Origin: Vermamoeba vermiformis
Taxonomy: Eukaryota
Direction: 5' to 3'
Assembly (NCBI GenBank): GCA_045837725.1
Contig: JBEWZL010000282.1
Span: 1 to 64,000, forward strand
DNA: 64,000 nucleotides
Each line of letters starts with the position of its first letter. The stretch's first letter is position 1. The notes under the pieces were generated by a model. It ran no database searches and was not told the origin of the DNA. It saw only the letters and a program-made list of their open reading frames with translations. The position numbers were made by a program, and so were the translations under genes. Below, in pieces: positions 1,053-50,700 of the stretch.

Positions 1053-1254
1053 CAGTTATCAACTAAGGCACCAATTTCCCAGTATACAGGCTACTCCAAA
1101 CATCTTGTTTATTTAATGTCCATACATTGGCCATGGATGGCGGCTGATTTGTACAAATGTTTGATTGGCCTCTATGGCTGACTTGCCTCACACCCAACCG
1201 CAGCCCCACCAGCCCTAACCCTAAAGGGTCATGATAACTAGAGCTAAAAAACTT

Positions 1255-1665
1255 ACAGGACAAGTCTGCACAGATCCAGGTCTCATCCTGGGGCACGAAG
1301 AAATTTCAGCTACACAAGTCTGGTAATGGTTTTCAGACCAGATCTTTGCATTACCTAATAAGGAATTAAATGGATCTGGCTTAGACCACTTAATTTAGAC
1401 TTACCAATCAACTCGATAGACTCTCTAGGTGATGGTAAGCACCTGCTATCACCATGAAAGCATTCTGTGCAAACTTTTCTAAATTTGAATTTCTCATCAG
1501 ATTAATTTAGAAATTAGTAAAAATTAATGGGAAGTTCTAAAATTTCATTCCTTACCCTTGTTTCACTTCTAATAAAATTGCCTTCACTTGTAGAATATTC
1601 CCTTAAAGCCACTCCTCAGAGAACACCCACCATAAGCTCCTGGACCTCATCCCCTGCAATCCAGC
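1255..1665 (-). pseudogene. Possible decayed spliced gene relic
   Basis: Three consecutive blocks on the minus strand are bounded by ag/gtaag splice signals with intron-sized gaps, but no frame stays open across all of them. The region is CpG-depleted. Confidence 0.25.
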
Positions 1666-1825
1666 TGAGATGTGAAAATATAAATATTTTGACGCCATGG
1701 ATAGCTTAAACAATGGTATTGCTAATGAGGAATCTGCTGGAGGATCTGAATAGATCTAGCACCAAAAAACGGTCATTTTTGCTTGAACCAGCCCTGGGGG
1801 GTTTGTGGTCAAAATTTGGCCATAC

Positions 1826-1965
1826 CATATGCTGTTATAGCATATGCTTTCAATAACAGCACATGCAGTCATGGAAAAAAATAGGGCATCATGGTCTTCA
1901 ATAATGGCACGTGCTTTTGTTGCAAATAATAGCATATCATATGCTAAAAAATAGCATATGCTAAT
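1826..1965. repeat. Cluster of short AGCATATGCT-type palindromes
   Basis: CATATGCT-GTTAT-AGCATATG (1826-1846), AGCACATGC (~1858), GGCACGTGCT (~1906), AGCATAT-C-ATATGCT (1931-1945), TAGCATATGCTA (1952-1963). Confidence 0.6.
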
Positions 1966-2703
1966 AAACGTAAATTCCGGAGTGCCAACTTCTTCCTACC
2001 AATCAGCCAGTAGATCCAGGATCTGGTCTAAATAATGTGCCACTGCTGACAACCCTATACTTTCCCAATTGCTGTGACTTTACTAGGGATATATTCCCCC
2101 TAGTATAAAGATGCAAATTGGACAAATAAAACATTATGCATAAAATCTTACATGTAAAAGGCTTTTTTAACAATTTAACCAATTCTGCCTCATTAATTAA
2201 TTTGCTGACCGAGTCTATTTGCACACTTGGCTCACCTTCTGCACTTTGTGCCAAAGTCTGCAGCAGTGAGCCAAGACACGCAAAGAATCAACGTGGCAAA
2301 TCTGATAAAAAGAATTTGCATCAAAGAAAGCCCAATTGGAGTGACAAAAAAGATTAGTAGAGCTTTGATAGTGCTGCAAGATCTCGACAACAGAGGCTGT
2401 AATATCAATTCAGTTGCTCTCCTAACCAAGCCCTTTATTTACTCCAATAGCAATGCACCTGGAAAGGAGCATTCATTTCAAAAGGTCCACCCAATTCAAC
2501 AATGTTCAGCACTGACAAAAACAGTTCAATTTAAATTAAATCTAAATGAAAGAACAAAAATAAAATGCAACTGGGTGGTACTGCATTGTTCTATGTAGTG
2601 CATTATGGCACAGGGTGTGCTGTAGCTGGAATATTTAACCTGCTATTCACAGCTATAACATTAAACAAGGCTGACAGGTAAGGCTTCACAGTCAGCAATA
2701 TGT

Positions 2704-5700
2704 TTATTTCTTCTTTTTGAAATTAAATTCAATTTGCAACAGGTATTTCAGCTTGACTTGAGCTGTGTCATATACAATGAACTCATTGTACAACAATTCA
2801 CTCTTTTTCACTGCCTCTGACTTCACACATTTACCAAATGGCACCACAACATCACCATCAATTGTCTTTGTGTGTGCATCATCTGGGATTGTTGTTCCTA
2901 CACCTTTGGTACTATCATAGCCTGTTAAAACACATCAATATGGAAATCATTCACCCCCCAAGTTAACTTACCCTTTGGTGGTTTGTCCATGTACTTAGCT
3001 TTCTTTAATTCATACATTTCACCCAAGGCCACTTCTGCAAGCAGCATCAATGCCACAGGGCTGTCTTTGTTTGCGTGACAGTAATTGGCACTCTTTGAAA
3101 CCAAATCAGCGAAGTAGAGGCCTTTGCCAAACATATAGCCTGTAACTGGAGCTTCAGGCGGTGCAATACGAAGACCCTTGATGTATGTGTTACTACCGTA
3201 ATTGGTGGATTTGATTGCGACATACCTGCGAGAGAATGCCAACAAAGTTGGTTAATCTGCTGCCGTGCCACAGCAGCATTTTGTTTTTCAATTTTTCGTA
3301 CTTCTTGTAGTTCGTTGCTTCATTGGCACGATCAACTTTAAACACCTCTTTCACTTTCAGCGTATAATCTGTATGCGTTGGTGCGTGCGTATTCTTCACA
3401 TATTCTACGATCTAGTAATTTTAGGTTAAATTTAACGTCACGCTATTGAGTAGGACTCTCTATTACCATTTGGAACTCATCCGAGTCATGATCAAGCGGC
3501 TCCATGGCGCAATTAAGCTTCTTGTAGTGACTCTCTAGCGGGTCATCAGTATCGTCGTCCGCTGAGCGCAACAACGTAGTGGCAATTTCCATCTCCAGCA
3601 ACGAGTAGATCAAATCGACTTTCTCTTGCAGCTGCTCTTGGCTGTCAATAATAGTGGGATTGTCCATGCCAAACGAATGCGGGATCAGTGTGTAAAATCT
3701 GTTCGTAGCATCTGTACGTGGTTAGTACCTTCACAAAATCAAGGCAAGTCACTTACCGACAAACTTGGCTTTCGGTGCGTTGCCTTGCTTAATTAACTCT
3801 TGAATCTCGGTAAGCACCTTGTAACCTTCCATCAAATGGCTTTTGCTCAATTTGCCAAGCGGCATCTGTATTGTGTTAAGCTATCAAATCACTTCACTTA
3901 AACTCTACGCACCTGTTGCACGTCAATCTCCATTTCTAGGAGTGCACGCTTCATGGCTCTGCAAAGTGATTTAATATAGCGCCGCATTAAATCAAAGTCA
4001 CGTACTTGGTATCGAACATCAGCTCGATGAGCGAGGCTAATCGCTGATCTAACTGCGACTTTAGACTTGTCGAATTCTTTTTCTTTGATCTCTTCATCTT
4101 CTTTTTTCATTCCAAAATCGAGTTCGATGGGATAAAACTTTCCTGGCTGCTTGACGAAGTTCTTTCTATTACTCCATTCGTTTAAAGTCTTCTCGTAGTA
4201 CAACTTTTCGAAGTTCTTTTTAGCCGCTGCCTTTGTTGCAAACTGCTCTAGCTTGTTGCCGCCAATAGTCGTGCCTACTCTGCCCCACTTACGGAACACG
4301 TACCACTTGTTGCCATTGTCTTCTTCTAGCAGCTGCAGAGCATAATACGAGTTTGTACCCTTCATAATGTCTGCGCGCATGGTAATTACTAAATACCGCC
4401 GAAAAATTGAAGCTTACCAGTCAAATTCAACATAACGTTGAAAATATCTGACTTTTCTTCCAACACGTGACAGTCTTCGTCGCGACCCGAGTCAGGATCT
4501 ACAGCGGAATTGCCCTTGATTTTTAACTTCTTCTTTGTCGGGTCGCCTAAGAGACATCAGTGATGATGCGCAAATGTACGCGTAGCATTGCATTACATAC
4601 CTTCGCCCTCATCTCCTTCGCCAGCCTCCCATTTCTTTTGCAAACTTCCTTTACTCGAAGCACCGCGTTTGAGCTTCGGTTTCTCCGCTGGCTTGTCTTC
4701 TTCGACCACTAATTTAATCGGCTCGCTAGGTATCCACTGTCGCGGCTTGCCAAAAAAGGTGTATTTCTAATTCGAAATGAGTACACGCCGCTAAGCTTTG
4801 ATCGTTGCTACCTTTTGATCACAAGCCTTGCCTTCTTTAATGGAGTCATAAATGTATTGTTCTTTGTACATCGGAATATTTAACTGCACGGCGGCTTTGA
4901 ACTTGGCGGGTTTGGTTTGCTCGAACAAAATTTTCATGTCAGCAATGACGTGCGATACGTGGCGTTCTAACATAAGGGTGAGCACCGTTTGAATGGAAAA
5001 AATTGAGCTATTGCTTACCAATCGTCGTGCTGTATTGTCCTCCGTATTTGCGAATTAGATTTTTAACTTCTTCTCGAGGTCTAACAAAGAGCAATGTTAG
5101 CTACGAGACAATTCGAAATACAAGTCACGTACTTAGAGAGTTTGCCAACAATAGCGAACACTTGGTCTTCAAATATTCGATCGAGCGGCTTTTCTTCGTA
5201 TTTAATTTCCATCTCCATTTCTGACTCCTGAGTTTGATTGTTATTGTTGTTATTGTTGCTGACATTAGACGTTGATTTGTTGAAGTTCTTATCGAAGTCA
5301 TCGGGCAATTTCGGAATTATTTTTTTCAGCATTTTACGCTAATCTTTACGTTAGTACACGATAGCACAACACTCATTTCATTATAACGAACGTACTTGTT
5401 TAAATTTGAATTTTGCAAGCCATTTGTCGTCAAGCTCTTCTGGATCTGGCATCAGCCACTCAGTTCTTTTAATATCCTTCGACTTGAATAGACACCTAAG
5501 ACGGTCATTGTTACATTGATTCGATCGTGTTGCCTTTGACTTACTTGGACCAGGCCGTTGATCCCGTGCACGCATACTCCTCTCCGTCGAGGCACACCAA
5601 ATCACCGTCGCCGCACTCGGGACACTTTGGCGTCGCACCAAACAACATTCCAGCGGCACAACGATCGACCAATTTTTGAACTCCACCGTGCGTGGGTTGA

Positions 5701-29074: not shown

Positions 29075-32000
29075 ATGAAGTCTTCAGTGGTGCTTTCGCT
29101 CATCTTCGAATGTCTTTTTGTGTCTTTGATAGTCGCAGATCAGTGCACTTTTATTCCCAATACTAGCAGCGGAAAAGCCTGGGTTGGAACTGTAAGCGCG
29201 TAAGTAAAGCTGCAGTTTGAACAAATTTCAGTTTAACAGGGTAAATTATTATGAAATCATCCGGGATGGAGTTGACTTGTTTATAACTTCACGCAATACT
29301 ATGACTAACGTTATTGTTGACTTAGATTGCAAGCATGCGTTACTAGCATTCCCGCTTCATCAAGTCGCCAAAGTGCAACCATCTCCGTTCTGCGTCAGAT
29401 GGTGGACTTGTATTCATTCACTGACATTGCCAAGAACTCTGGTGATCCTTGGAATATGAATGTAAGTATTATTACACGATAGGATCATGTAAAATCGATT
29501 CAGGAGAATCTTAAAGCAGTTTAGCAATGAATCTAAAACCAGCAATTCGAAAGTTTTTATTAATTCAATCGTAACTACCATTTAATCGATCATATTACTT
29601 ATTTCTAAAGGTGATAATAAGTTCAGCTTTAACGATTCAATTAAATAACTTGACTTTCTAATTAGGTGGATCTGGATGCCGGTTTGAACACAATCGCTAG
29701 CAAAAGCTATTCTCGAGATGCTGACTTTCATAAAGGTACCATATATGTTGGATACTAGTGCTTTACAAACTTGATTCTTTCTGCGAGCCGACCTGTCATT
29801 CAAGCGGTCACGAACAAATTACCAAATCGCCCTAAGCCCACTAATCGTTTATCAATTTTTATATCGTTATTTATGCCATCATAAATTATTTTGACATAGA
29901 GGCACTTCTATTGAAAGAAGGAGTGATCCAAATGCACATGCACAATTAAGAAAAGATAGTCGGTTAACCATGATTTTTAGATTTGACGGCGCTGTTCAAC
30001 TCGTTGAATGATGCGCACACTTGGTATAGCTATCCTGCTCCTTACTCCAACATGGCTGCTTTCAGACCATTCGGAGTGCGACCAGTTTATGATGGATCGA
30101 AGTTGCGATTTTACTTGACCCAATCTCGTAAGTAAAGAAATTCTGGATACCGTATTCGTGACGTTTACGAAAAATAGAAAATTTGAAAAAGCTCGCCAGT
30201 CCACTCCACTCACGTGACATTACTATTTTTAGAATATTTGGATCCGTCATATTACCAGCAACTGTTCAACTTTAACCCCACGACCTACTACGGCGAAGAA
30301 GTGACTCAAATTGATGGCACTGATGTCGTTACTTGGTTCAAGGTACGGAATTATTTTCGATACTTTACGCAACCGAAATTGCAATCCTTCAAAGACACAA
30401 AATTAATTCCCTTAATTTGTAGAATTATGCCAACAACTACGTCGGCTTCTATAAAGATAATTCTGTTCGATTCAATGCTGCTATTAAGCTCTCCGGCTCA
30501 TACGCTGTTTTCTCTGGTAAGGATCCCGACTTTTCAATTTACGACCGAAAAATACTAACTCTATCATAGGTGATCGTTACTCTATAGCCGATGCTCCTAC
30601 TAGCGAGACTATGACTATTAATGGCAATTCAGTTACCGTGCCTCTTGCAGGAGCTTATATTGGCAGTCTGAGCAACCAAGCCGACGCGATCAACAAAATC
30701 GATACTGTAAGAAATACACTTTGCTTGCGTAGAAATGATTATTAATTAATATTTTTGCAGCCTCGTACCTCCACTGGCTCTAAGAAGAGAGTTGCTGTTG
30801 ATGAAAATTTGCAAGTGTTCAGAGGCATGACTTTGCGTCTTGGTCCCGACGTGCACCGCGAAAGAATTGAAATGTTGTCGCCCTTCGTCAACGAGGAAGG
30901 CATCACCCACACTATGGCCACTATTGACTACTCTGCTTTGCCTTCAGTCAAGGTACGTACTTCTTAATTTTATTGCCTAATATGGAGCTGTAACTGACTT
31001 ATTATCGTTACCAGCCTTTGACTAAGAGAGGTACTGCCGCCAGCACGGTTGGTATTAAGACCGGTTCTTCGTCGAACTTGGAGTTGACTGCTGGTACTAG
31101 CGACGGTACTATCTGGCGAGGTCTTTACACCACCGCTGATGGCAACAACGTCCCCGTGTTGCGAATCAGTTCGTTTGCTCCTAATGACGCCAATGCCTTC
31201 TTGACTGTCGTCAGCGACTTTGCAGATCTGATCACGAACAACAAATTCGATCGTGTTGTAGTCGATGTTTCAGGCAACGGGTATGCCATAGATTTGACAC
31301 TATAGGTGCAGTACTAATGTATATCTATTCACAGTGGCGGTATCATCTGCTTGGCTTATTCTGCCATGTCAATTTTCTCGTCTTCATTCAGAGACGTGGC
31401 CGCTATGGAGCGATACGACTTGAGACGCACCAACATGAACATCAATTTGCACAACGTAAGAATCGTATTATTACATATATTAAAGCATTGTATTAATCAT
31501 ATTATGATTTGCAGAGCCGTTATTTGAACGGAACCGATTACAGAAGGTTAGTTTCAAATAAGTTAATTAACGCGTGGCCTTTACTGACCGCATGACAGAG
31601 TTGGAAGTGGTGAAGTGTACGGCAACGACGAGTCTTGGTTCGATACACGCACCGTCACACGTGGTGGTCAATCGACCGACTTGACTCAATTCGTTTTGTT
31701 CCCTGCTGAGTGTTTGCAGTTCACCAACATCATCACCACGGGCCACTACCCGAGCAACCTTCTCTTGGTCACTGACGGTACTTGCGGTAGTGCCTGCTCG
31801 CTGTTCTTGTCTAAGTTCGTCGAATACGGCGTTGGTCAAGTTGTTTCTTACGGTGGCTTCACTGACACTGGTGACGTAAGTGGCTCGGATCTCGATCTTC
31901 TAAAGAACTCTTTCTAATTTGCTTTGTATTAGATGGATACCAGCTCTTTTGCAGGTGGTAACGTGTTGGACTGGCCTGACTTCGTGACTTCCACTTTTGG

Positions 32001-32421
32001 CTTCAGTTTGAACCCCGCTCCTAGTTTCATGCCGACATCTGCCTGTAAGCTTTGTCACCGAAATTTTATTGATTCAATTTCATCATTAACGTGTGTCTAT
32101 AGTCAATCGTTTCAATCACCATGAAATGTATATGGGTCAATCTGCTTCAGTTCCTCGAGAATGGAGAAAGATGCCAGCAGGATATCACATGTATTTCTAC
32201 GACGCACTTGTCAATGATGACGTGAGTACCTCTGACGGTCTTCAAGCTGCAGCGACATTGTACGAGAGTGCTATTGGCGTATTTGGCTCGGTAAGTTTGA
32301 GGGTACTTTGCTTGTCACATCCACTCTAACTGATGATTTTTAGTTCACTCAAAGATCAGCTGCCTCTGTTACCACTATTTCGAGCTTGCTTATTGTTGCC
32401 ATGGGTGTACTTCTTTTTTAA
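29075..32421 (+). CDS. Secreted, probably GPI-anchored peptidase S41 family protein (paralogue 2)
   Basis: Signal peptide MKSSVVLSLIFECLFVSLIVA, then LNDAHTWY, VVDVSGNGGG, VTDGTCGSACSLF, FAGGNV. C-terminus SAASVTTISSLLIVAMGVLLF. Confidence 0.8.
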
Positions 32422-32548
32422 TTTTAGATAAAGTACAAACGGTCAATTTAACTTCTCCAGTTTATGACTTGATTTGCAGTCAGAGATAGATGATAGGCAG
32501 GTTGTGACCACACCACTATTAAATCTAAAAAACCCTGCACTTTATTAT

Positions 32549-34490
32549 CTAATCATCAAAAAGGGATTTGACATTAGCATTTAAATCACTAAATAATTTG
32601 GAGTGCAACTCTTGCAAGAATGGAACTATCTGCAGATTGATCACACCAGAGTAAATAATTGCTTCCCATCCATGCAACATTGACTCTTCCTTGAGCTTGG
32701 CCACATTTGTTTTGTTCTTCTCTTTTGACCATGGCAAAGAATTCTCATTTGCCAAGTACAGTATAACATAAAACAGTGATTCAAAGTCATCTCGCTCTTG
32801 GTAAGTATACTCACTTGTATCATTGAGATGTTGAGATACATTGATTGATGCAAACATCAGAGTGCCAGTGAGACCAATAATCGACTGGTCACGTTGAATA
32901 GCATAGCCCCAATCAATAAGAATAGGTTGTGTGCCATGCATGACTATATTTTTCAGTGAAATGTCAGCATGAAAAATGTTGTTCTGATGTGCATGAACTA
33001 GAGCCTCATTCACTGCTTTGGTAAATGACACTAGGTCACCAACTGCTTCTACATCACAAATAGGAGCTCCTTTAGGATAAGTTATCACAAAGGGATATCC
33101 TTCAACTGGAGTAACTCCACTGGCAAGTAAGACAGGTATTGACAGGGGCCTGATAATGATTGTTAACTCTTTTCATAAACTCAGTTTACATACAGTTTCT
33201 CACTATCCAAGCTATGATTTTGGAGGAGTTATTGCAGACATGCAAGTGAGTTAATCTCCTTCTCAATTTCACTGTTTGTTGCTTCTAGTGGACTGTACTT
33301 CATAATCACTTCAATTTTTGCATTTCTTTGCTGTTCTTTGCTGGAGTGCTTTGGGTTCTCAACAAAGGCACTTGCTACCGTGGGTTGTTTTGCCCCTCCA
33401 CTGATGATGTCATTTATCTGAAACAAACATACAGGGCTTGACCATGATGAATGATAGTGCTTTGCAGAAAAAATTCCATGCTCATTAATTTGAATGGATG
33501 ATGCTGGAATAAAGCCAAGCTTGTTTGCTTCAGTAAACATAAATTGCCACACTAATGCAGAGCCTAAAACAAATGTCAGCCAGATATTGTTATCTATGTA
33601 CTGTTACCTTCTTTCCAACCCACAGGGTATGTTTGGTAAATGTGTACAAACTGCTGGCCTGGTTTGTTGAATAAAAACTTGTGAAGAATACACATGTCGG
33701 TTGGTAATGAAAGCATAAAACTCTGTTCTTTCAGGCTGCGCTTTTCTGAGCTCCATAATGTGGGACACAGCTTTGCCTCGTGCATTATTTAGTTGTTTGT
33801 CTAACTTAATGCACATCACTCCAACAATTGCACTGGCTACAACAGCATTTGTGTACCGACTTTGTTCAACAAACACTAGGTCAGGTATGTCATTCATGCC
33901 ATAAGTTGGAGTCTTATGAGTATTGACAAAGCAAAGCAGGCTGTCCTTATGTTGAAAATGGTCGACAATAAGGGCTTGCAGATCATCTTTAATTTTGAGA
34001 GGCAGATCATTGGCAATTTGCAAACCCATAGTACCTTCACGTGAACCAGTAAAGAGGCTTCGACGTGCTTCATGATCATTGACGTGCAAAAATTTGTTAG
34101 CATTATTTGCGACTTGAGCTGAAGAGGATCTGGTCAGTTTGAGTTCTTCGACATCGGCTTTTAGTTTTGCCAGCTCTTCGTTCCAGCTAGTTCCTAGCGC
34201 AGCGTTAATTGTTGTCAAATTATTCGTGCCGTACCTGATTCACTCTGTGGGTTCTGCGGTTTTTTGATCTTGGCCCACAATTCTCGAAGCAGTGGTTTTG
34301 GAATGGAGTTATCAAAATCAGACAACAAGCAATCCAATCCGTCTTTTGATCCATACATTAGAAGGCGTTTCCCGTTCACGACTTGTGCAATCAGAATTTC
34401 CGCGCTTTTTGCAGGCCAGAACAAGACTTTGCGCGCCCAAACAGCCACCTGCTTTGGATGCCAATCGGGCTTTGGTAGGGTGTCGTTCAT
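32549..34490 (-). pseudogene. Crinkler (CR)-effector-like gene: SAM-like header, REase-like domain and FunK1-like kinase; disrupted
   Basis: Header WHPKQVAVW...ILIAQVVNGKRLL; nuclease-like IPDLVFV...VMCIK; kinase HADISLKNI, LIDWGYA, GTLMFAS, DDFESLFY. In-exon TAA at 33229-33231 and a frameshift near 33700. Confidence 0.7.
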
Positions 34491-35154
34491 TACATTATAG
34501 CGTGCCCATGCCTCCAGTTGCTCGTCAGACCAATGTTCAACTTTTTCAATAATCGCATCTGCTTCAACATTAGTAAGTTAAATCACCTTAGAAATAGGGC
34601 TTAATTAAATATAAATTTCGGGTTTTCGGTTAAATAGAATTTCTCGTGAAGACGTTACTCTAATGCTAAGATCGAAGATCTAATTTAATTCGTTTGATCC
34701 AGTGCAATCAGGCGTCATAATTAATTTCGGCAGCACTGACCATTAGGTCAATTAATTAAAAATCAAGTACCGTTTTCCTCCATGATCTGTTTATAAAATA
34801 AGAAATTAAAATTACAAGACTTCTGGCTTAATACGACGTTTGAAAGAATATTGCTTACCTCGAACAATGGCAAATAATAATATTTAGGCATTTGCCCGTG
34901 CGAAGAATCTGCAATTTTCGCTCAGGATAAAAAATCTCGGGAGTGAGCTCGCAGGATCCAACGGGATCTTAAACTTGTCCCATTTGAAACGGAATAGTCT
35001 GGTGTCATTTGATAGTATCTATCCAATCGTTTGATATGACCAGTTTGTTCACCTCCGTTCCGAGGTAATTTCTATGTGAAATCAAATTTGTTATTTTTTA
35101 TTCGTTTAAGCAAGCAGAGACGAGACGACTTGAATTTTTATTAATTTAAAAAGC

Positions 35155-43080: not shown

Positions 43081-46000
43081 ATGAGTAAACGGCACGCAGA
43101 TTATGAAGTTGATCATAGAGATAGCAAGAAGCCTCGGATTGACCAAGTAAGCATCATAATTAAGCTTCAAAATTGCATTTGCTAATTCAGGCAATTATTT
43201 AGAACGAAGATGTAACAATGTCGCTTGCCTTGAATATGGCAATCGAAGGTATTTATTGGTTTCAGATAATTTTCGTAATTTTTAAAAATACCAGGTTGTG
43301 ATTAAACTTTTTCTGTTTCAGATCCGCTCCATTTTGACATTGAGAGTCTTCCGTTAGATATCCTCGGCAACCTAATATTCAGATGTTTTCCGTTTGAGTA
43401 TTGGCTCCAAAATTTCGTTTCTGTAAACAAACGTTGGTACCAAGCCGCGATCCAATCCAGCGCCGAAAAGCAATTGATTATAAATGGAAACAACGAAAAG
43501 CAGATATTCAAGTGCTATTCAATAGCATCTCGGTTCAAAATTACGGCAGTTACAGTGACGAACGAAGCCCTGTCCGTCGGCCGTTTAGCCGCGTTACTGA
43601 ATTCCTCACCAAGACTTCACACGTACGCACAATTCCGCGGAAGTGACAGTGATTCTATCAACATAACATTTCCGTTCATGAAAACGGTATACGGGCACAG
43701 CTCTTGGCTCAAAAGATTTCCAAACGCGACGCGAGTTCAATTAATTGACAGTTTCTTCGACTTTCATTCGCAGTTCCCAAGCGTAGAAGAACTAGCCATT
43801 AACGAAACTGACGACATTAAGCAACTATTAACGACTTTCCCGTCGCTAAAAGTATTGCACATCGCTGAAATTTCCAAAGAGCAACTAGACGTGATACCTT
43901 CGACCATTCAAGTTTGTCTCACGCCGTCAACAGATGACAACAGAAATTGGTGGAAATATTATTCGTACGATCAAGTATGGGGAAATGATTACCTCAGAAC
44001 GCCGTTAGAGTACCTAATGACTATACACCAAGATGATAGCAAAATTGAAGAAACTGCAAAGCGAACCTCAGTAGAATACGAACGCAACATAAAACGCCGC
44101 TGCTACGAGTATAAATTTCCGCTAGTTTCTTTAGATCCAACTACAAGTTCTTTACTTTGTTCTTCAGATGTGCTGAAGCATGCTTGGTTCGACCTTTACA
44201 GCGCACCAGATGACCCAAAAAAACTACGACTTTACGCCACTTACATGCCGCCAATGGATGCTCTACGAATGCTAATGAAGAAAAATCAACAGCAACTCGT
44301 TGATGAATTTCTAAATACACATTCAAACGAACTGTTCGAAGAAATGACTCCAGATCTGTTCTCCGAATTAGTCTTATCTTGCGATGCAACAAAGTTGAGT
44401 CAAGCATTCACACGAGAACAACTGGCGGAGATCATGAAGCGTAAAGACAGTAACGGAACATTGGCAATATACTTAGTTTTCGAAAACAAAAGTCCAACAG
44501 TTCTATTGCAGGCCATCAAGAACTTTGGAGAGTTGCCGAGTGACTGGCCAGTAGATGGTACAGTGTTTGATATCGCCGCGGACAGAAGAAGTGTGGATTG
44601 GATGAAGTTTTTAATCACGACAGGTGTCAAATTTGATATTACAAAGATATTCAAAAGGCTTAAACCGATAGAAGACCTGTCCGATCTTCAAGAAATTATA
44701 CGTTCAATCGATAAAGAGAAAGCTTACGCGGGCCAAACAAACTGGCTATTTGACTCAGATTGGTGGCAAACAGGCGCGATTAGCGCAAATCTGATCGATT
44801 TTTTTGTCAGCGAATTCAAATATGATCTTAACACAGCTAAACAAGAAGACGAAGAAAACTCGAAAAGACAATCATTTATGCTCCATTTAATGCATGCTGT
44901 AATTAAGGACGATACCTACACTGGCTTAAGTACGCTTAGTACCATCGTTAAAAAATACAACCTTGACATCAACCAACAAGATGAGGACGGCGAGACACCA
45001 ATACTTGTAGCAATAGATCGATACAGATTATCGGAGCTGAAGTGGCTTCTCGACAACGGTGCGAAGCCTTCTTCACCCAAAGGCACACAACCATTGCACG
45101 TTGTGATGTCAGTGCCAAAAAAAGGCCCCCGCAGACCCAGCTTGGAGACGCTAGAATTTGCAGATATTTTGCTTGCATATGGCGCTGACATTAATGCGTA
45201 CAGTTTTTACGACCACAACAAAAAACAAGCTACAGCGCTGATGAATGCAGCGAAAAATAATCAACCGATTGAAGTCATTGAATATCTGATTGCACGTGGT
45301 GCTAGGACTGATATGACAGGCAGTCGCGGCCAGACATTAATTCATTATGCAGTTCGTTCACAGAACCCTGATTTGATTAGATTCTTTGCCAAGTACGTTG
45401 ATATCAACAAAGTAGATGACGAGAACTGTTCTCCGCTTCACCTGGCTGGAAAGTATCAAGAAACAGAATCCTTCACAACGCTTTTGAAACTCGGTGCAGA
45501 CGTCAATCAAGTTCGACGTGGTCTCACGCAGTTAATGCGAGCGTGCTTGTGGGGCCATTATGCACTGATAGCAGAGCTGATCAAATTTAACGTGAATTAT
45601 CAAGCGGTTAATGAACAAGGTCACTCGTTTGTGCACTTTTTATTGAAACATCAACAACAAGGAAATGGAATTAGCCTCAACGAATGTACGTAGATAATCG
45701 TTATTTGTAACTGAAACGAAACGAGACTAATTCATCTACTTATAGCTAATTTGCTTGTGACGATTAAAGAGAGCGTTGCAACAATGAAAAACGAAGACAT
45801 CAAATTCATTATCGGTGAAGTGAAGAAATACCTGGAAATGGCTAAACAAGACCAGACATTATTCATGAACATCTTCCGCCTATTGCAGATCACACGTGAT
45901 TTTAGCGGAATTTCTCATCGAACACGTGGGTCTTGATATCAACACTCAGGACTTGACCGGCAATGTCTTGTTGAGCTATCCGATGGACAAAGAGGTATTA

Positions 46001-47786: not shown

Positions 47787-50700
47787 ATGAGAAAAAGACG
47801 GGCTACCAGTGATAATAATCGTCGCAGTAATAAAAAACGCAGAACAGATAACGTATGTGGAGCTCGATCTTTTGTAACGGTAATTTTTTTCTTAATTTAA
47901 AATTCAGAATGAGGAAAAAATCGCTCTTTGTCTACAAATACGACCATGGAAGGTATATTTCATATTTTTAGCTATTTTTGAATTATTTTAAAATTAATTC
48001 GGATCAGATCCCCAATCCTTTGAAATGGCGAATCTTCCCTTGGAGATTTTAGGCAACCTAATATTCAAATACTTCACCTTCGACTATTGGCTTAAATCTT
48101 TGAGCTATGTCAGCAAGCAATGGTATCAAGCAGCGATCCAATCAAACGCAGACAAGCAATTATTTATTGTTGCCCCGAAGGAGAGCGAACTTCACAAGTA
48201 TTATATCATAGCAGCGCGATATAAAGTCACTGCAATTATATTGAGGCTGATCAACAAGATATCTATTGGTCGGTTAGCCGGACTTCTCAGTTCCTCACCA
48301 AAGCTTCATACTTTCGTGTATCCGCAGCATGATGTCTTGGGCGCTTACTCCAAACACTCTACATTGAAATTTCCCTTCATAAAGACGGCGTTTGTGCACA
48401 GCAGCTTACTCACGAGGTTTCCCAACGCAACTCGGGTACAACTGGCGGATGACAGCGTCTTTTGGGACTCAACGGAGCTATTTCCGAATGTAGAAGAGTT
48501 AGCTGTTCAAAAAATAATAGATACAATGCCAAGCATATTAAAAGGATTCCCGTCACTCAAAGTACTGCACATCGGAGAGATAACGGACAAGGACAAGAAA
48601 TTAGTTCGGAAACAACAAGTTGAAGTTAGGATCAGTTCCATGGAAGACAACAAAGATTGGCGAAAATATTATTCACTCGATCAATTATGGGGATCTGATC
48701 TATATTGGTCGCTAATGGAACACGCTACGGAATGTTACGTGACGAAATACACAGCGAAAAAACCGCATCCGTCAGTAGAATATGAAATCGGATTATTAGA
48801 GCGCCACGAAGATTATCAGTTTCCAGCAATTACAGATTTCATTCCAGACGTATTTTGTCGGCGCAGATCAGTAGCTTGTTCGACGGCAGAACCACCAGTC
48901 TATTTTTGCAAACACTTAGCATTAGAGTTTGAACTGACGCATATGCTCCTTCAAGAAGACAAAAAAGGCATTAAAAGACTGCTGCAAACAAAATCTCAGC
49001 AATTATTCAATGCTATGAAACCACCCGTATTCGCCGGTTTGATTAAAATTGTTGCAGCATCGGAGTTGAAGAAAGTTTACAGCAAAGAGCAATTAGAACG
49101 CATGATGAAGCTTCGTGATCACAATGGAACGATAGTTCAAAGTTTCATCGCTCTGAATTATGACACGGAAGATCTCGACAAAGCGATCGAAAATTTCGGG
49201 CCTTTACCTGAAGGCTGGCAGACCGTAGAAACGAACTCAAAAATCTCATTAGTCCAATTAGCGGGAAATCTCGAGAGATATGATTGGATCGAGTACCTTG
49301 TCAATAATGGAGTCAAAATCGACATCACCAAATTCTTCCTACACGCCTCCAACGAAGCAGAAGACGATAATATGAGAAAAATTCAAAATATAATTCGGTT
49401 AACTCACAAAAAGAACGCTTATTTGACGAAAACGAATTGGCTCTTCGACTCAGATTGGTCAATCCTAGAAACGGAATCAAAGATACAACTTATTGATTTT
49501 TTCGTGGAAGAATTCAAAATCAATCTCAACGAAGCTAAACAAGACGATGAATTCAATGCTAACTGCGAAATATCGTTTGTTAACCATTTGATCGAAAGCA
49601 TGTGGTCAACAGATCTGGAATTATTTAATCACGTCTGGGAGAAATACAAACTTGATATTAATAGAATTGATGGCAATAGATTAACACCATTATTAACGGC
49701 AATACAACAGAGGATGCCGGATATAGTTGTTTCGCTGCTTGAAAAAGGCGCGGCAACAAATTTGCCGAAAAGTAATCTGCCGTTATATCTCACAGTTGCA
49801 GACCTCAAAAAAGATGTCTATGAGTATATAGATACCTTGCTAGCATATGGCGCAGACATCAATGAATATTGCGACGATGATGTTGAAGGATGCAGCGCCA
49901 CAGCATTATTGATGGCTATTGATAAGAACCAGCCATTAGGAGTCATCAAATATCTCATTGTACGAGGAGCAAAGGCAGATCTAGTTGACAGCGATGGTCT
50001 TACTGCGATGCATTACGCTGCCATTAATGGAAGACCGGATCTGGTGCAATTCCTCGCCAAGTACGTGGACGTCAACAAAGTCGATAAAGAGGGCACGTCG
50101 GCACTACATTATACCGTCGATACATATGTGGACAGTCTCGCAACTATTGAAGCACTTTTGAAGCACGGAGCGGACGTGAATCAAGTTGACGAATCGTCAA
50201 TGACTCCGTTGATGAAGGCGTGTTCCAGGTCTCGAATAGAAACTATTGAAGAACTTTTAAAACACAACGTCGATATCAAAGCACGTGACAGAGATGGAAG
50301 GTCTTTTGTGTACCACTTGGCTCGTAATCTGAAAAATGCCCAGAAGTTCAGTTCGAAAGGTATGCGATCCCAATAAGCGAATACATATTAATTACTACGT
50401 TTAGAACAATTGCTGAAGAAAATTAAGCACCTAATGACCGACGATAACATTGCGTTTGTTATTGAAGACGCTAAGCAAGTGTTAGCACAAGCCACAAAAG
50501 AATCAGGCATACTTTTGAATAACATCTTCAATCTGTGCACATCGTCACTGTTCTTTGCGGAATTTCTCATCGAGCACGTGGGCTTCAACATCGACACGCA
50601 AAACTCCAAGGGTGATGTGTCGCTGAGCTATCCGATGAACAAAGATGTGTTCGACTACTTGATGACGAAGAACCCGAACGTTAATATACAGAACAGTAAG

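Follow-up and report, generated by a model that had tools for sequence, protein, structure and literature searches.

Why would a single gene be stripped of most of its CpG dinucleotides in a genome that is otherwise rich in them, and what has this loss meant for the gene? The question is raised by a stretch of Vermamoeba vermiformis DNA (assembly GCA_045837725.1, contig JBEWZL010000282.1, positions 1 to 64,000 of the forward strand), hereafter the window, which over its whole 64,000 nucleotides has a G+C content of 41.2% and an observed-to-expected CpG ratio (o/e) of 1.11. Near its middle lies a minus-strand gene predicted to encode a SAM-like head, a coiled coil, a restriction-endonuclease-like (REase-like) domain and a kinase, and it is the larger, 3′ part of this gene that is nearly free of CpG. 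A sequence-only reading of the same DNA had described the zone as a dying Crinkler-like gene, methylated by the host like a transposon and being destroyed by deamination. The account that we prefer, with moderate confidence, is that CpG methylation, kept up over a long time on one silenced gene from a multi-copy family, left this zone behind as its mutational footprint.

Extent and composition of the CpG-depleted island

Direct counting registered 9 CpGs between positions 32441 and 34000 (at 32793, 32882, 32892, 33379, 33698, 33739, 33779, 33857 and 33963), so that the earlier manual estimate of about 9 in roughly 1.5 kb proved exact. From base composition 57.9 CpGs would be expected in these 1560 bp, which makes the o/e 0.16 (0.18, 0.05 and 0.26 in the successive 500-bp windows of 32501–34000). 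None of the 56,078 overlapping 1560-bp windows taken outside both depleted islands of the stretch contained fewer than 51 CpGs (mean 76.9, standard deviation 9.5). The island is a loss of about 85% of CpG sites over 1.6 kb, covering most of the gene. This loss is CpG-specific and has a symmetrical excess of TG and CA as its counterpart: these two dinucleotides have o/e values of 1.55 and 1.53 in the island (background 1.08 and 1.07), GC stays at 1.23 in both, and TA is not enriched (0.64 in the island, 0.75 in the background). A CpG-specific loss with a matching gain of TpG and CpA, registered against the flanks as well as against the homologues described below, is the profile expected of a depleted domain driven by 5-methylcytosine (5mC). 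In ascomycetes, repeat-induced point mutation (RIP) acts as a C-to-T hypermutation of duplicated DNA with a CpA-to-TpA bias. It resembles the present case in being a C-to-T change in duplicated DNA, but its classical signature is excluded here because TpA is not enriched, and CpA and TpG are enriched rather than depleted.

The island extends from 32441 to 34039 and has no strand of its own. Its left edge is sharp, as had been noticed (near 32450): the last CpG before it is at 32440 and the next one at 32793. The core (32441–33697) contains 4 CpGs, and the right edge (33698–34039) is graded, with CpG spacings of 40–106 bp over 33698–34040 and normal spacing beyond. The sequence-only reading had also seen CpGs return in the 5′ ~500 bp of the gene, and the o/e over 34001–34577, the CpG-normal 5′ part of ~540 bp, is indeed 0.92. 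On the other side of the island the 8 CpGs counted by that reading at 31621–31680 of the neighbouring peptidase gene were found again. HSP70 and the other genes of the window have normal CpG, and only two zones of loss exist in the 64 kb.

Inherited composition or loss in place

A CpG-poor gene may simply come from a CpG-poor donor, a foreign genome or a family of that composition. A metagenome scan returned 45 loci, six of them close and representing four distinct genes; the closest relative whose DNA was obtained is 49% identical in protein, and the contig of P0151 (79–80% identical) was not returned by the scan. CpG o/e of the gene region is 0.61 in L001, 0.86 in L002, 0.92 and 0.93 in L003 and L004, and 0.29 in L005/L006, while the flanks of L001–L004 show 1.0–1.16. 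Thus three of the four distinct relatives' genes are CpG-normal or just mildly reduced, and those with open exon frames on other contigs, L002–L004, stand at 0.86–0.93. The more distant loci L007–L045 belong to genomes of other compositions, show no gene-specific CpG loss and were uninformative for this comparison.

The difference is most direct at aligned codon positions. Over the island part the relatives have 39 CpGs against 6 in the window for L003 and likewise for L004, 17 against 6 for L001, and 18 against 3 for L002. This alignment to family copies, which had been proposed as a check, also gave the expected products, since at the 39 CpGs of L003 the window has CA 11 times, TG 5 times, CG twice and other dinucleotides 21 times. 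The 5′ part served as an internal control, and there the aligned CpGs are at parity (6 vs 10 for L003, 9 vs 10 for L004). A short piece of RNA from an expressed relative, compared at 33221–33250, contains three CpGs where the window has CA, TG and CA. When the kinase exon was aligned with the relatives of 79–80% identity, 40 of 179 columns were found to differ, among them three R>Q changes and a single T>M, and 2 aligned arginines were counted in the window where those relatives have 8, 6 and 8; comparison with P0160 adds an R>C change at a TGT codon. Because the relatives keep CpG at the aligned island positions, with parity in the 5′ part, an inherited composition, be it of a donor, foreign or family origin, was rejected.

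In a narrower version, recombination or gene conversion would have brought in just the CpG-poor 3′ part, its source being a CpG-poor paralogue or haplotype or a foreign donor. To weigh it the structure of the gene has to be considered. Five exons are inferred on the minus strand, four open pieces being joined through three short GT..AG introns. Exon 5 (32549–33149, ending with the stop TAG at 32549–32551) encodes the C-lobe of a FunK1/Pkinase_fungal kinase; it matches PF17667 with 49.6 bits, above the gathering cut-off of 24.1, retains all 24 of the 24 family-invariant columns of alignment A1, and has both the catalytic-loop motif HxD...KN and the DFG-equivalent IDWG, which places it in this family. 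An intron of 44 nt (33150–33193, GTATGT...CAG) preserves the frame between open reading frames (ORFs), and its acceptor at 33149/33150 is used in the RNA of a relative. Exon 4 (33194–33563) supplies a linker and the kinase N-lobe and contains a premature in-frame TAA. The following intron (33564–33607, 44 nt, GTAACA...TTTTAG) is spliced out in the relative's RNA, which joins 33565 to 33654 with 41 letters matching the exon flank. Exon 3 (33608–34193), in which a frameshift is located, encodes the coiled coil and the REase-like domain. Its match to DUF6826 (E 9.1e-05, 23.1 bits) is under the curated cut-off of 26.6; the nearest Atlas clusters, with scores of 0.93, 0.92 and 0.90, carry DUF6826 and Pkinase_fungal. 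The REase region aligns with the PD...ExK core of the relatives, with the catalytic Glu of E-x-K, present in four of the five aligned relatives, replaced by Cys in the window copy. A search with the REase piece against longer proteins gave no match.

Upstream, an intron of 41 nt (34194–34234, GTACGG...CTAG) is predicted since it restores the frame between ORFs, and L003/L004 have their donor after the same ...ESG. Exon 2 (34235–34561), with normal CpG, would encode the SAM-like N-terminal domain. The full-length relatives L003 and L004 share 47–55% identity with it at their N-termini, and the L003 N-terminus matches SAM_2 with 21.5 bits (cut-off 20.5). Its nearest Atlas clusters are SAM at 0.88–0.89, which is a lead only; the N-terminal 120 residues match no Pfam family at E<=0.1, and the N-terminus has no match below E 0.39 among PDB sequences. 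A putative intron 1 (34562–34770) and a 13-nt first exon with its ATG at 34783–34781 complete the predicted gene at 34562–34783. A scan of 32300–32700 for bacterial promoters and terminators found nothing meaningful for a eukaryote.

Since the window head is homologous to the N-termini of full-length L003/L004, and that of L003 matches SAM_2, the CpG-normal head and the CpG-poor body form a single conserved architecture, in which the SAM-like head is followed by the coiled coil, the REase-like domain and the kinase, and which makes a foreign 3′ part unnecessary. It is true that the composition shifts inside the gene, near 34040, that these families are modular, with differing N-terminal heads set on the same REase-kinase body, and that a second similar copy of the gene exists. 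However, the left edge of the island does not coincide with a domain boundary but falls in intergenic DNA, CpG recovers gradually across ~340 bp at the right edge, without a step, three of the four relatives' genes are not CpG-poor, and a CpG-poor source copy would itself still need methylation as its explanation. Import of the 3′ part is therefore quite improbable in our estimation.

Lesions, copies and expression of the gene

Judged by its sequence the window copy is a pseudogene broken twice, by a premature stop and by a frameshift, both of them disabling lesions inside homologous coding sequence (the frameshift being known from the assembly sequence only). The TAA at 33229–33231 is in frame inside exon 4, just where it had been pointed out; the L001 homology crosses it in one frame, and the RNA of the expressed relative continues through the homologous place (loose end 33251) with a sense Lys codon. 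The origin then suggested for this stop, by C>T or G>A changes, had to be given up. No single CpG transition yields TAA from a sense codon, and the Lys codon of the nearest expressed relative is one transversion away from it, so that by the codons compared the stop is not a product of CpG deamination. The frameshift falls in the interval 33642–33696 (minus strand), as compared with the L003, L004 and L001 homologues. L003 keeps one frame across its positions 1227–1361 and 1419–1457, with 57 nt between them, while the window has 55 nt in this place and changes frame between 33697 and 33641; L001 backs the same composite reading. Thus the earlier picture of a dying gene destroyed by deamination stood in part: the gene is broken, and its missense changes are of the deamination type (R>Q three times, T>M and R>C), but neither the stop nor the frameshift is a deamination product.

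In the contigs of RNA run X5, obtained from the same strain, depth is zero over 32572–35117, though contigs of a single run show presence and not absence; the peptidase gene and the SH3-domain gene are both present among them. The peptidase contigs are spliced and identical to the window. One of them (record 12) covers the 3′ part of that plus-strand gene at 31500–32455, has three introns spliced out with 0 differences and ends at 32455, so that the peptidase transcript reaches at least this position, which is that of the left edge of the island. The convergent 3′ ends of the peptidase gene and of the SAM-REase-kinase gene are less than 100 bp apart. RNA runs X21 and X23 bear the same species label but represent a strain that has diverged, none of their 502 and 936 aligned reads, respectively, reaching 99% identity; a relative of the gene is expressed there and spliced at the same introns, and its sequence matches the P0001 group (P0001/P0151), which has 79–80% protein identity to the window copy. 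Several hundred X21/X23 reads match only a 37-bp patch of the peptidase gene, 31769–31806, and then diverge; a highly expressed peptidase paralogue has this patch in common.

The gene is not alone in its genome. In DNA run X1 a second variant was registered over the island at a depth of about 330–460, the reference standing at about 445–680; the family is multi-copy in this run and the gene exists in at least two similar copies. Five further X1 contigs match only the patch 34500–34532 of the SAM-like head (...HWSDEQLEAW...) and then differ, which shows that the genome has several more members of the family with related heads.

With the limit of the X5 contigs already named, several observations weigh against the preferred account. 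P0160, a protein of another record with 90% identity, has the same R>Q and T>M changes, and because they are common to both, most of the erosion seems to predate the window copy and would not be peculiar to the broken one. Changes between the X1 variants are balanced (C>T or G>A in 52 places, T>C or A>G in 45), and when differences to the second variant and to the expressed relative were taken together, only 2 of the 26 best supported create a CpG among the 40 listed of 498. The second X1 copy is on these grounds probably eroded as well. X1's sole covering contig is without one base at 34605 and one at 34891 relative to the window. Either the strains differ here or the assembly has a small error, and in view of these discrepancies the frameshift at 33642–33696 could also be an assembly error. 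The L005/L006 gene has an o/e of 0.29 and its exons are nonetheless open. Finally, the first island of the window (1060–3074, no strand assigned), which has no CpG between 2385 and 3074, includes the last exon and an intron of a minus-strand PARP gene (2706–3074). This CpG-free part is intact: the intron is canonical (53 nt, GTAAGT...AACAG), the last exon is open, and the PARP catalytic domain is matched with E 1.5e-15 and 2.5e-30. Because the 3′ end of PARP is intact and the L005/L006 exons are open, CpG loss alone does not, as far as these reading frames tell, destroy genes here.

The existence of copies brings in another explanation, namely that a duplication-triggered, RIP-like hypermutation directed to CpG hit the gene copies in bursts, with no slow deamination under standing methylation. 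CpG-targeted RIP-like mutation, of the TCG>TTG type, is reported for some basidiomycetes. The two or more similar copies in X1 and the CpG-type amino-acid changes common to the window and P0160 are what it would lead one to expect. Against it, classical RIP converts CpA to TpA, and in the island both CA and TG are in excess with TA slightly reduced; read depth (bins 34180–34581) weakly suggests that the duplicated unit includes the CpG-normal 5′ ~540 bp; and the CpG-free zone of the first island enters the PARP gene, which has no copy within the window. We regard bursts of this kind as improbable.

A different reading takes the methylation to be of the gene-body type, laid on a mostly active gene with its first ~500 bp exempt and rising to the 3′ end, with pseudogenisation being recent and unrelated; the trigger may in this case be convergent overlapping transcription with the peptidase gene. 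The 5′-sparing profile is seen in the window and again in L006 (CpG o/e 1.02 over positions 1–305 and 0.30 over 701–2279), and the open exons of the CpG-poor L005/L006 gene, the intact CpG-free 3′ end of PARP, the 24 invariant columns retained in the kinase exon and the close convergence of the peptidase and SAM-REase-kinase genes all suit it. Published data agree to the extent that, in species with gene-body 5mC, a 5mC peak is described where N6-methyladenine (6mA) at the 5′ end fades (PMC12695648). On the other hand just two zones of loss were found in 64 kb, with HSP70 and the other genes of the window CpG-normal, and the TG/CA excess is symmetrical on the coding strand, giving no hint that the more damaging direction was selected against. 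In those fungi that have been examined, 5mC is reported on transposons and not on gene bodies (PMC12695648). Methylation of an active gene body thus appears unlikely here.

Returning to long-standing methylation of a silenced family member, one can propose the following sequence of events, the host having the look of an early-diverging fungus. From the composition, the asymmetry between homologues, the lesions and the absence from one RNA data set we infer 5mC, silencing and the setting of the boundaries. Standing CpG methylation would have been placed on a silent multi-copy SAM-REase-kinase gene, and methylated CpGs would have deaminated to TpG and CpA across its 3′ ~1.6 kb. On its left the domain would stop where the expressed convergent peptidase transcript has its 3′ end (32455), and on its right at a point ~540 bp inside the gene, beside the promoter region that this gene has in common with the expressed SH3-domain gene. 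The stop and the frameshift would be mutations of the ordinary kind, acquired once the gene had been silenced or selection on it had been relaxed. In several protists and early-branching fungi, among them Spizellomyces, Naegleria and Acanthamoeba, 5mC is described on silent repeats and transposons, with 6mA and trimethylated lysine 4 of histone H3 (H3K4me3) marking the first nucleosomes of active genes (PMC12695648), and by analogy the proposed boundaries fit this picture of 5mC and 6mA/H3K4me3 domains (PMC12695648).

Head-sparing in an unrelated locus and other features of the window

A head-sparing CpG loss like that of the window gene recurs in an unrelated metagenome locus, L005/L006. L005 (1–6832) and L006 (1–2969) are the same locus, 99.8% identical, and carry a relative 40% identical to the window copy that consists of an ubiquitin-like (Ubl-like) or other head, a coiled coil, REase and kinase. 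Its CpG-poor block spans at least 6.8 kb with an o/e of 0.27; normal CpG is confined to the first ~520 bp of L006, and the block includes, besides the relative, a KilA-N-domain gene, a HEAT-repeat ORF and a possible SET-like ORF. One may imagine that genome defence in more than one lineage recognises the REase-kinase body as a selfish element and methylates it, sparing the exchangeable head on the promoter side, though we consider this doubtful. If it were true, Crinkler-type "toxin cassettes" would make up, in early-diverging fungi, a class of non-transposon targets of 5mC silencing, matching the "transposons to toxins" idea.

The two islands of the window are unrelated, as blastn and tblastx comparisons against the window gave self-matches only, together with palindromic repeats of the first island at 400–1000. 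ORFs of the first island at 1060–2700 have no Pfam family, and no recognisable gene was found there. Between a gene end (~370) and this island, at 408–1051, are seven copies of a 22-bp G+C-rich palindrome, CCCCGTCC.CC.GGCGGACGGG, where none is expected by chance; they sit in diverged repeat units of ~125–200 bp and retain their CpGs despite the adjoining depleted zone. Elsewhere in the window a tandem pair of paralogous ORFs without introns (43306–45693 and 47998–50376; 795 and 792 amino acids) has C-terminal ankyrin repeats, no Pfam match in the first ~630 residues and normal CpG (o/e 1.22 and 1.19). As a control for duplication-triggered mutation these paralogues were uninformative, having in common just short patches of 67–86% identity.

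Comparison with known systems

The name "Crinkler-like", given by the sequence-only reading, holds in one half. By its domain matches the gene has the C-terminal module of Crinkler (CR) proteins, a nuclease of REase fold followed by a protein kinase, here DUF6826 and then Pkinase_fungal, and an architecture of this kind makes up about one sixth of CR C-termini, as stated in a review summarising Zhang et al. 2016 (PMC5289972). The N-terminus is SAM-like, and no Crinkler header (Ubl fold, LxLFLAK, HVLVxxP or Pfam Crinkler) was found in the window copy with Pfam or in the relatives checked; heads of the distant relatives L006 and P0009 have no Pfam match either. The designation is therefore valid for the C-terminal REase-kinase body only, though the gene may belong to a broad CR-like class, since some CR headers are alpha-helical according to the same review (PMC5289972). 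With Crinklers of the PiCRN8 type, as presented there, it has in common the order of REase-fold domain and kinase, an exchangeable N-terminal head and a multi-copy family (PMC5289972); it differs in having a SAM-like head in place of the Ubl/LxLFLAK header and Cys in place of the catalytic Glu, and it is known from sequence alone. With FunK1/Pkinase_fungal (PF17667) and DUF6826 proteins it is linked through the kinase exon that scores above its cut-off, the DUF6826 match upstream and the Atlas clusters that carry both; it departs from them in that this DUF6826 match is under the curated cut-off and the copy is broken.

If methylation is confirmed, a fungus-like, generally CpG-high genome marks a protein-coding family, and not transposons only, for silencing, with boundaries apparently set by neighbouring active genes and with erosion reaching an intact housekeeping gene (PARP). 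A local CpG o/e below 0.3 with a gain of TG and CA may then serve as a sequence-only marker of past methylation where there is no methylome, and a case arises for asking whether Crinkler-type nuclease-kinase genes act as selfish elements. This last idea is already in print: a 2026 paper describes a Crinkler-like gene of fish as an epigenetically silenced selfish element (PMC12957317). In literature searches aimed at other questions no papers on CpG erosion of REase-kinase genes were found. The teleost gene, AACRNL, parallels the present one as a Crinkler-type toxin gene treated by its host as a selfish element to be silenced (PMC12957317), but it has an ADP-ribosyltransferase toxin domain, another host and trimethylated lysine 27 of histone H3 (H3K27me3) as its mark, and it is unrelated in sequence to the window gene (PMC12957317).

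The closest likeness in composition is to the 5mC-marked, CpG-depleted silent repeats described in PMC12695648. With them the island has in common a local and sharply bounded CpG-specific loss, the gain of TG and CA, an otherwise CpG-rich genome, a multi-copy target that is apparently silent, and 5′ ends spared beside active promoters (PMC12695648). It differs in that 5mC is here deduced from sequence and that the target is a cellular-looking, intron-bearing gene and not a recognisable transposon. Local CpG-depleted, presumably methylated, silent repeats are known already. Also of interest is that the loss extends over the 3′ end of PARP, a neighbour gene that is itself intact. What is new is the target itself, which is no transposon but an intron-bearing gene of the Crinkler-body type whose SAM-like head is followed by a REase-like domain and a kinase.

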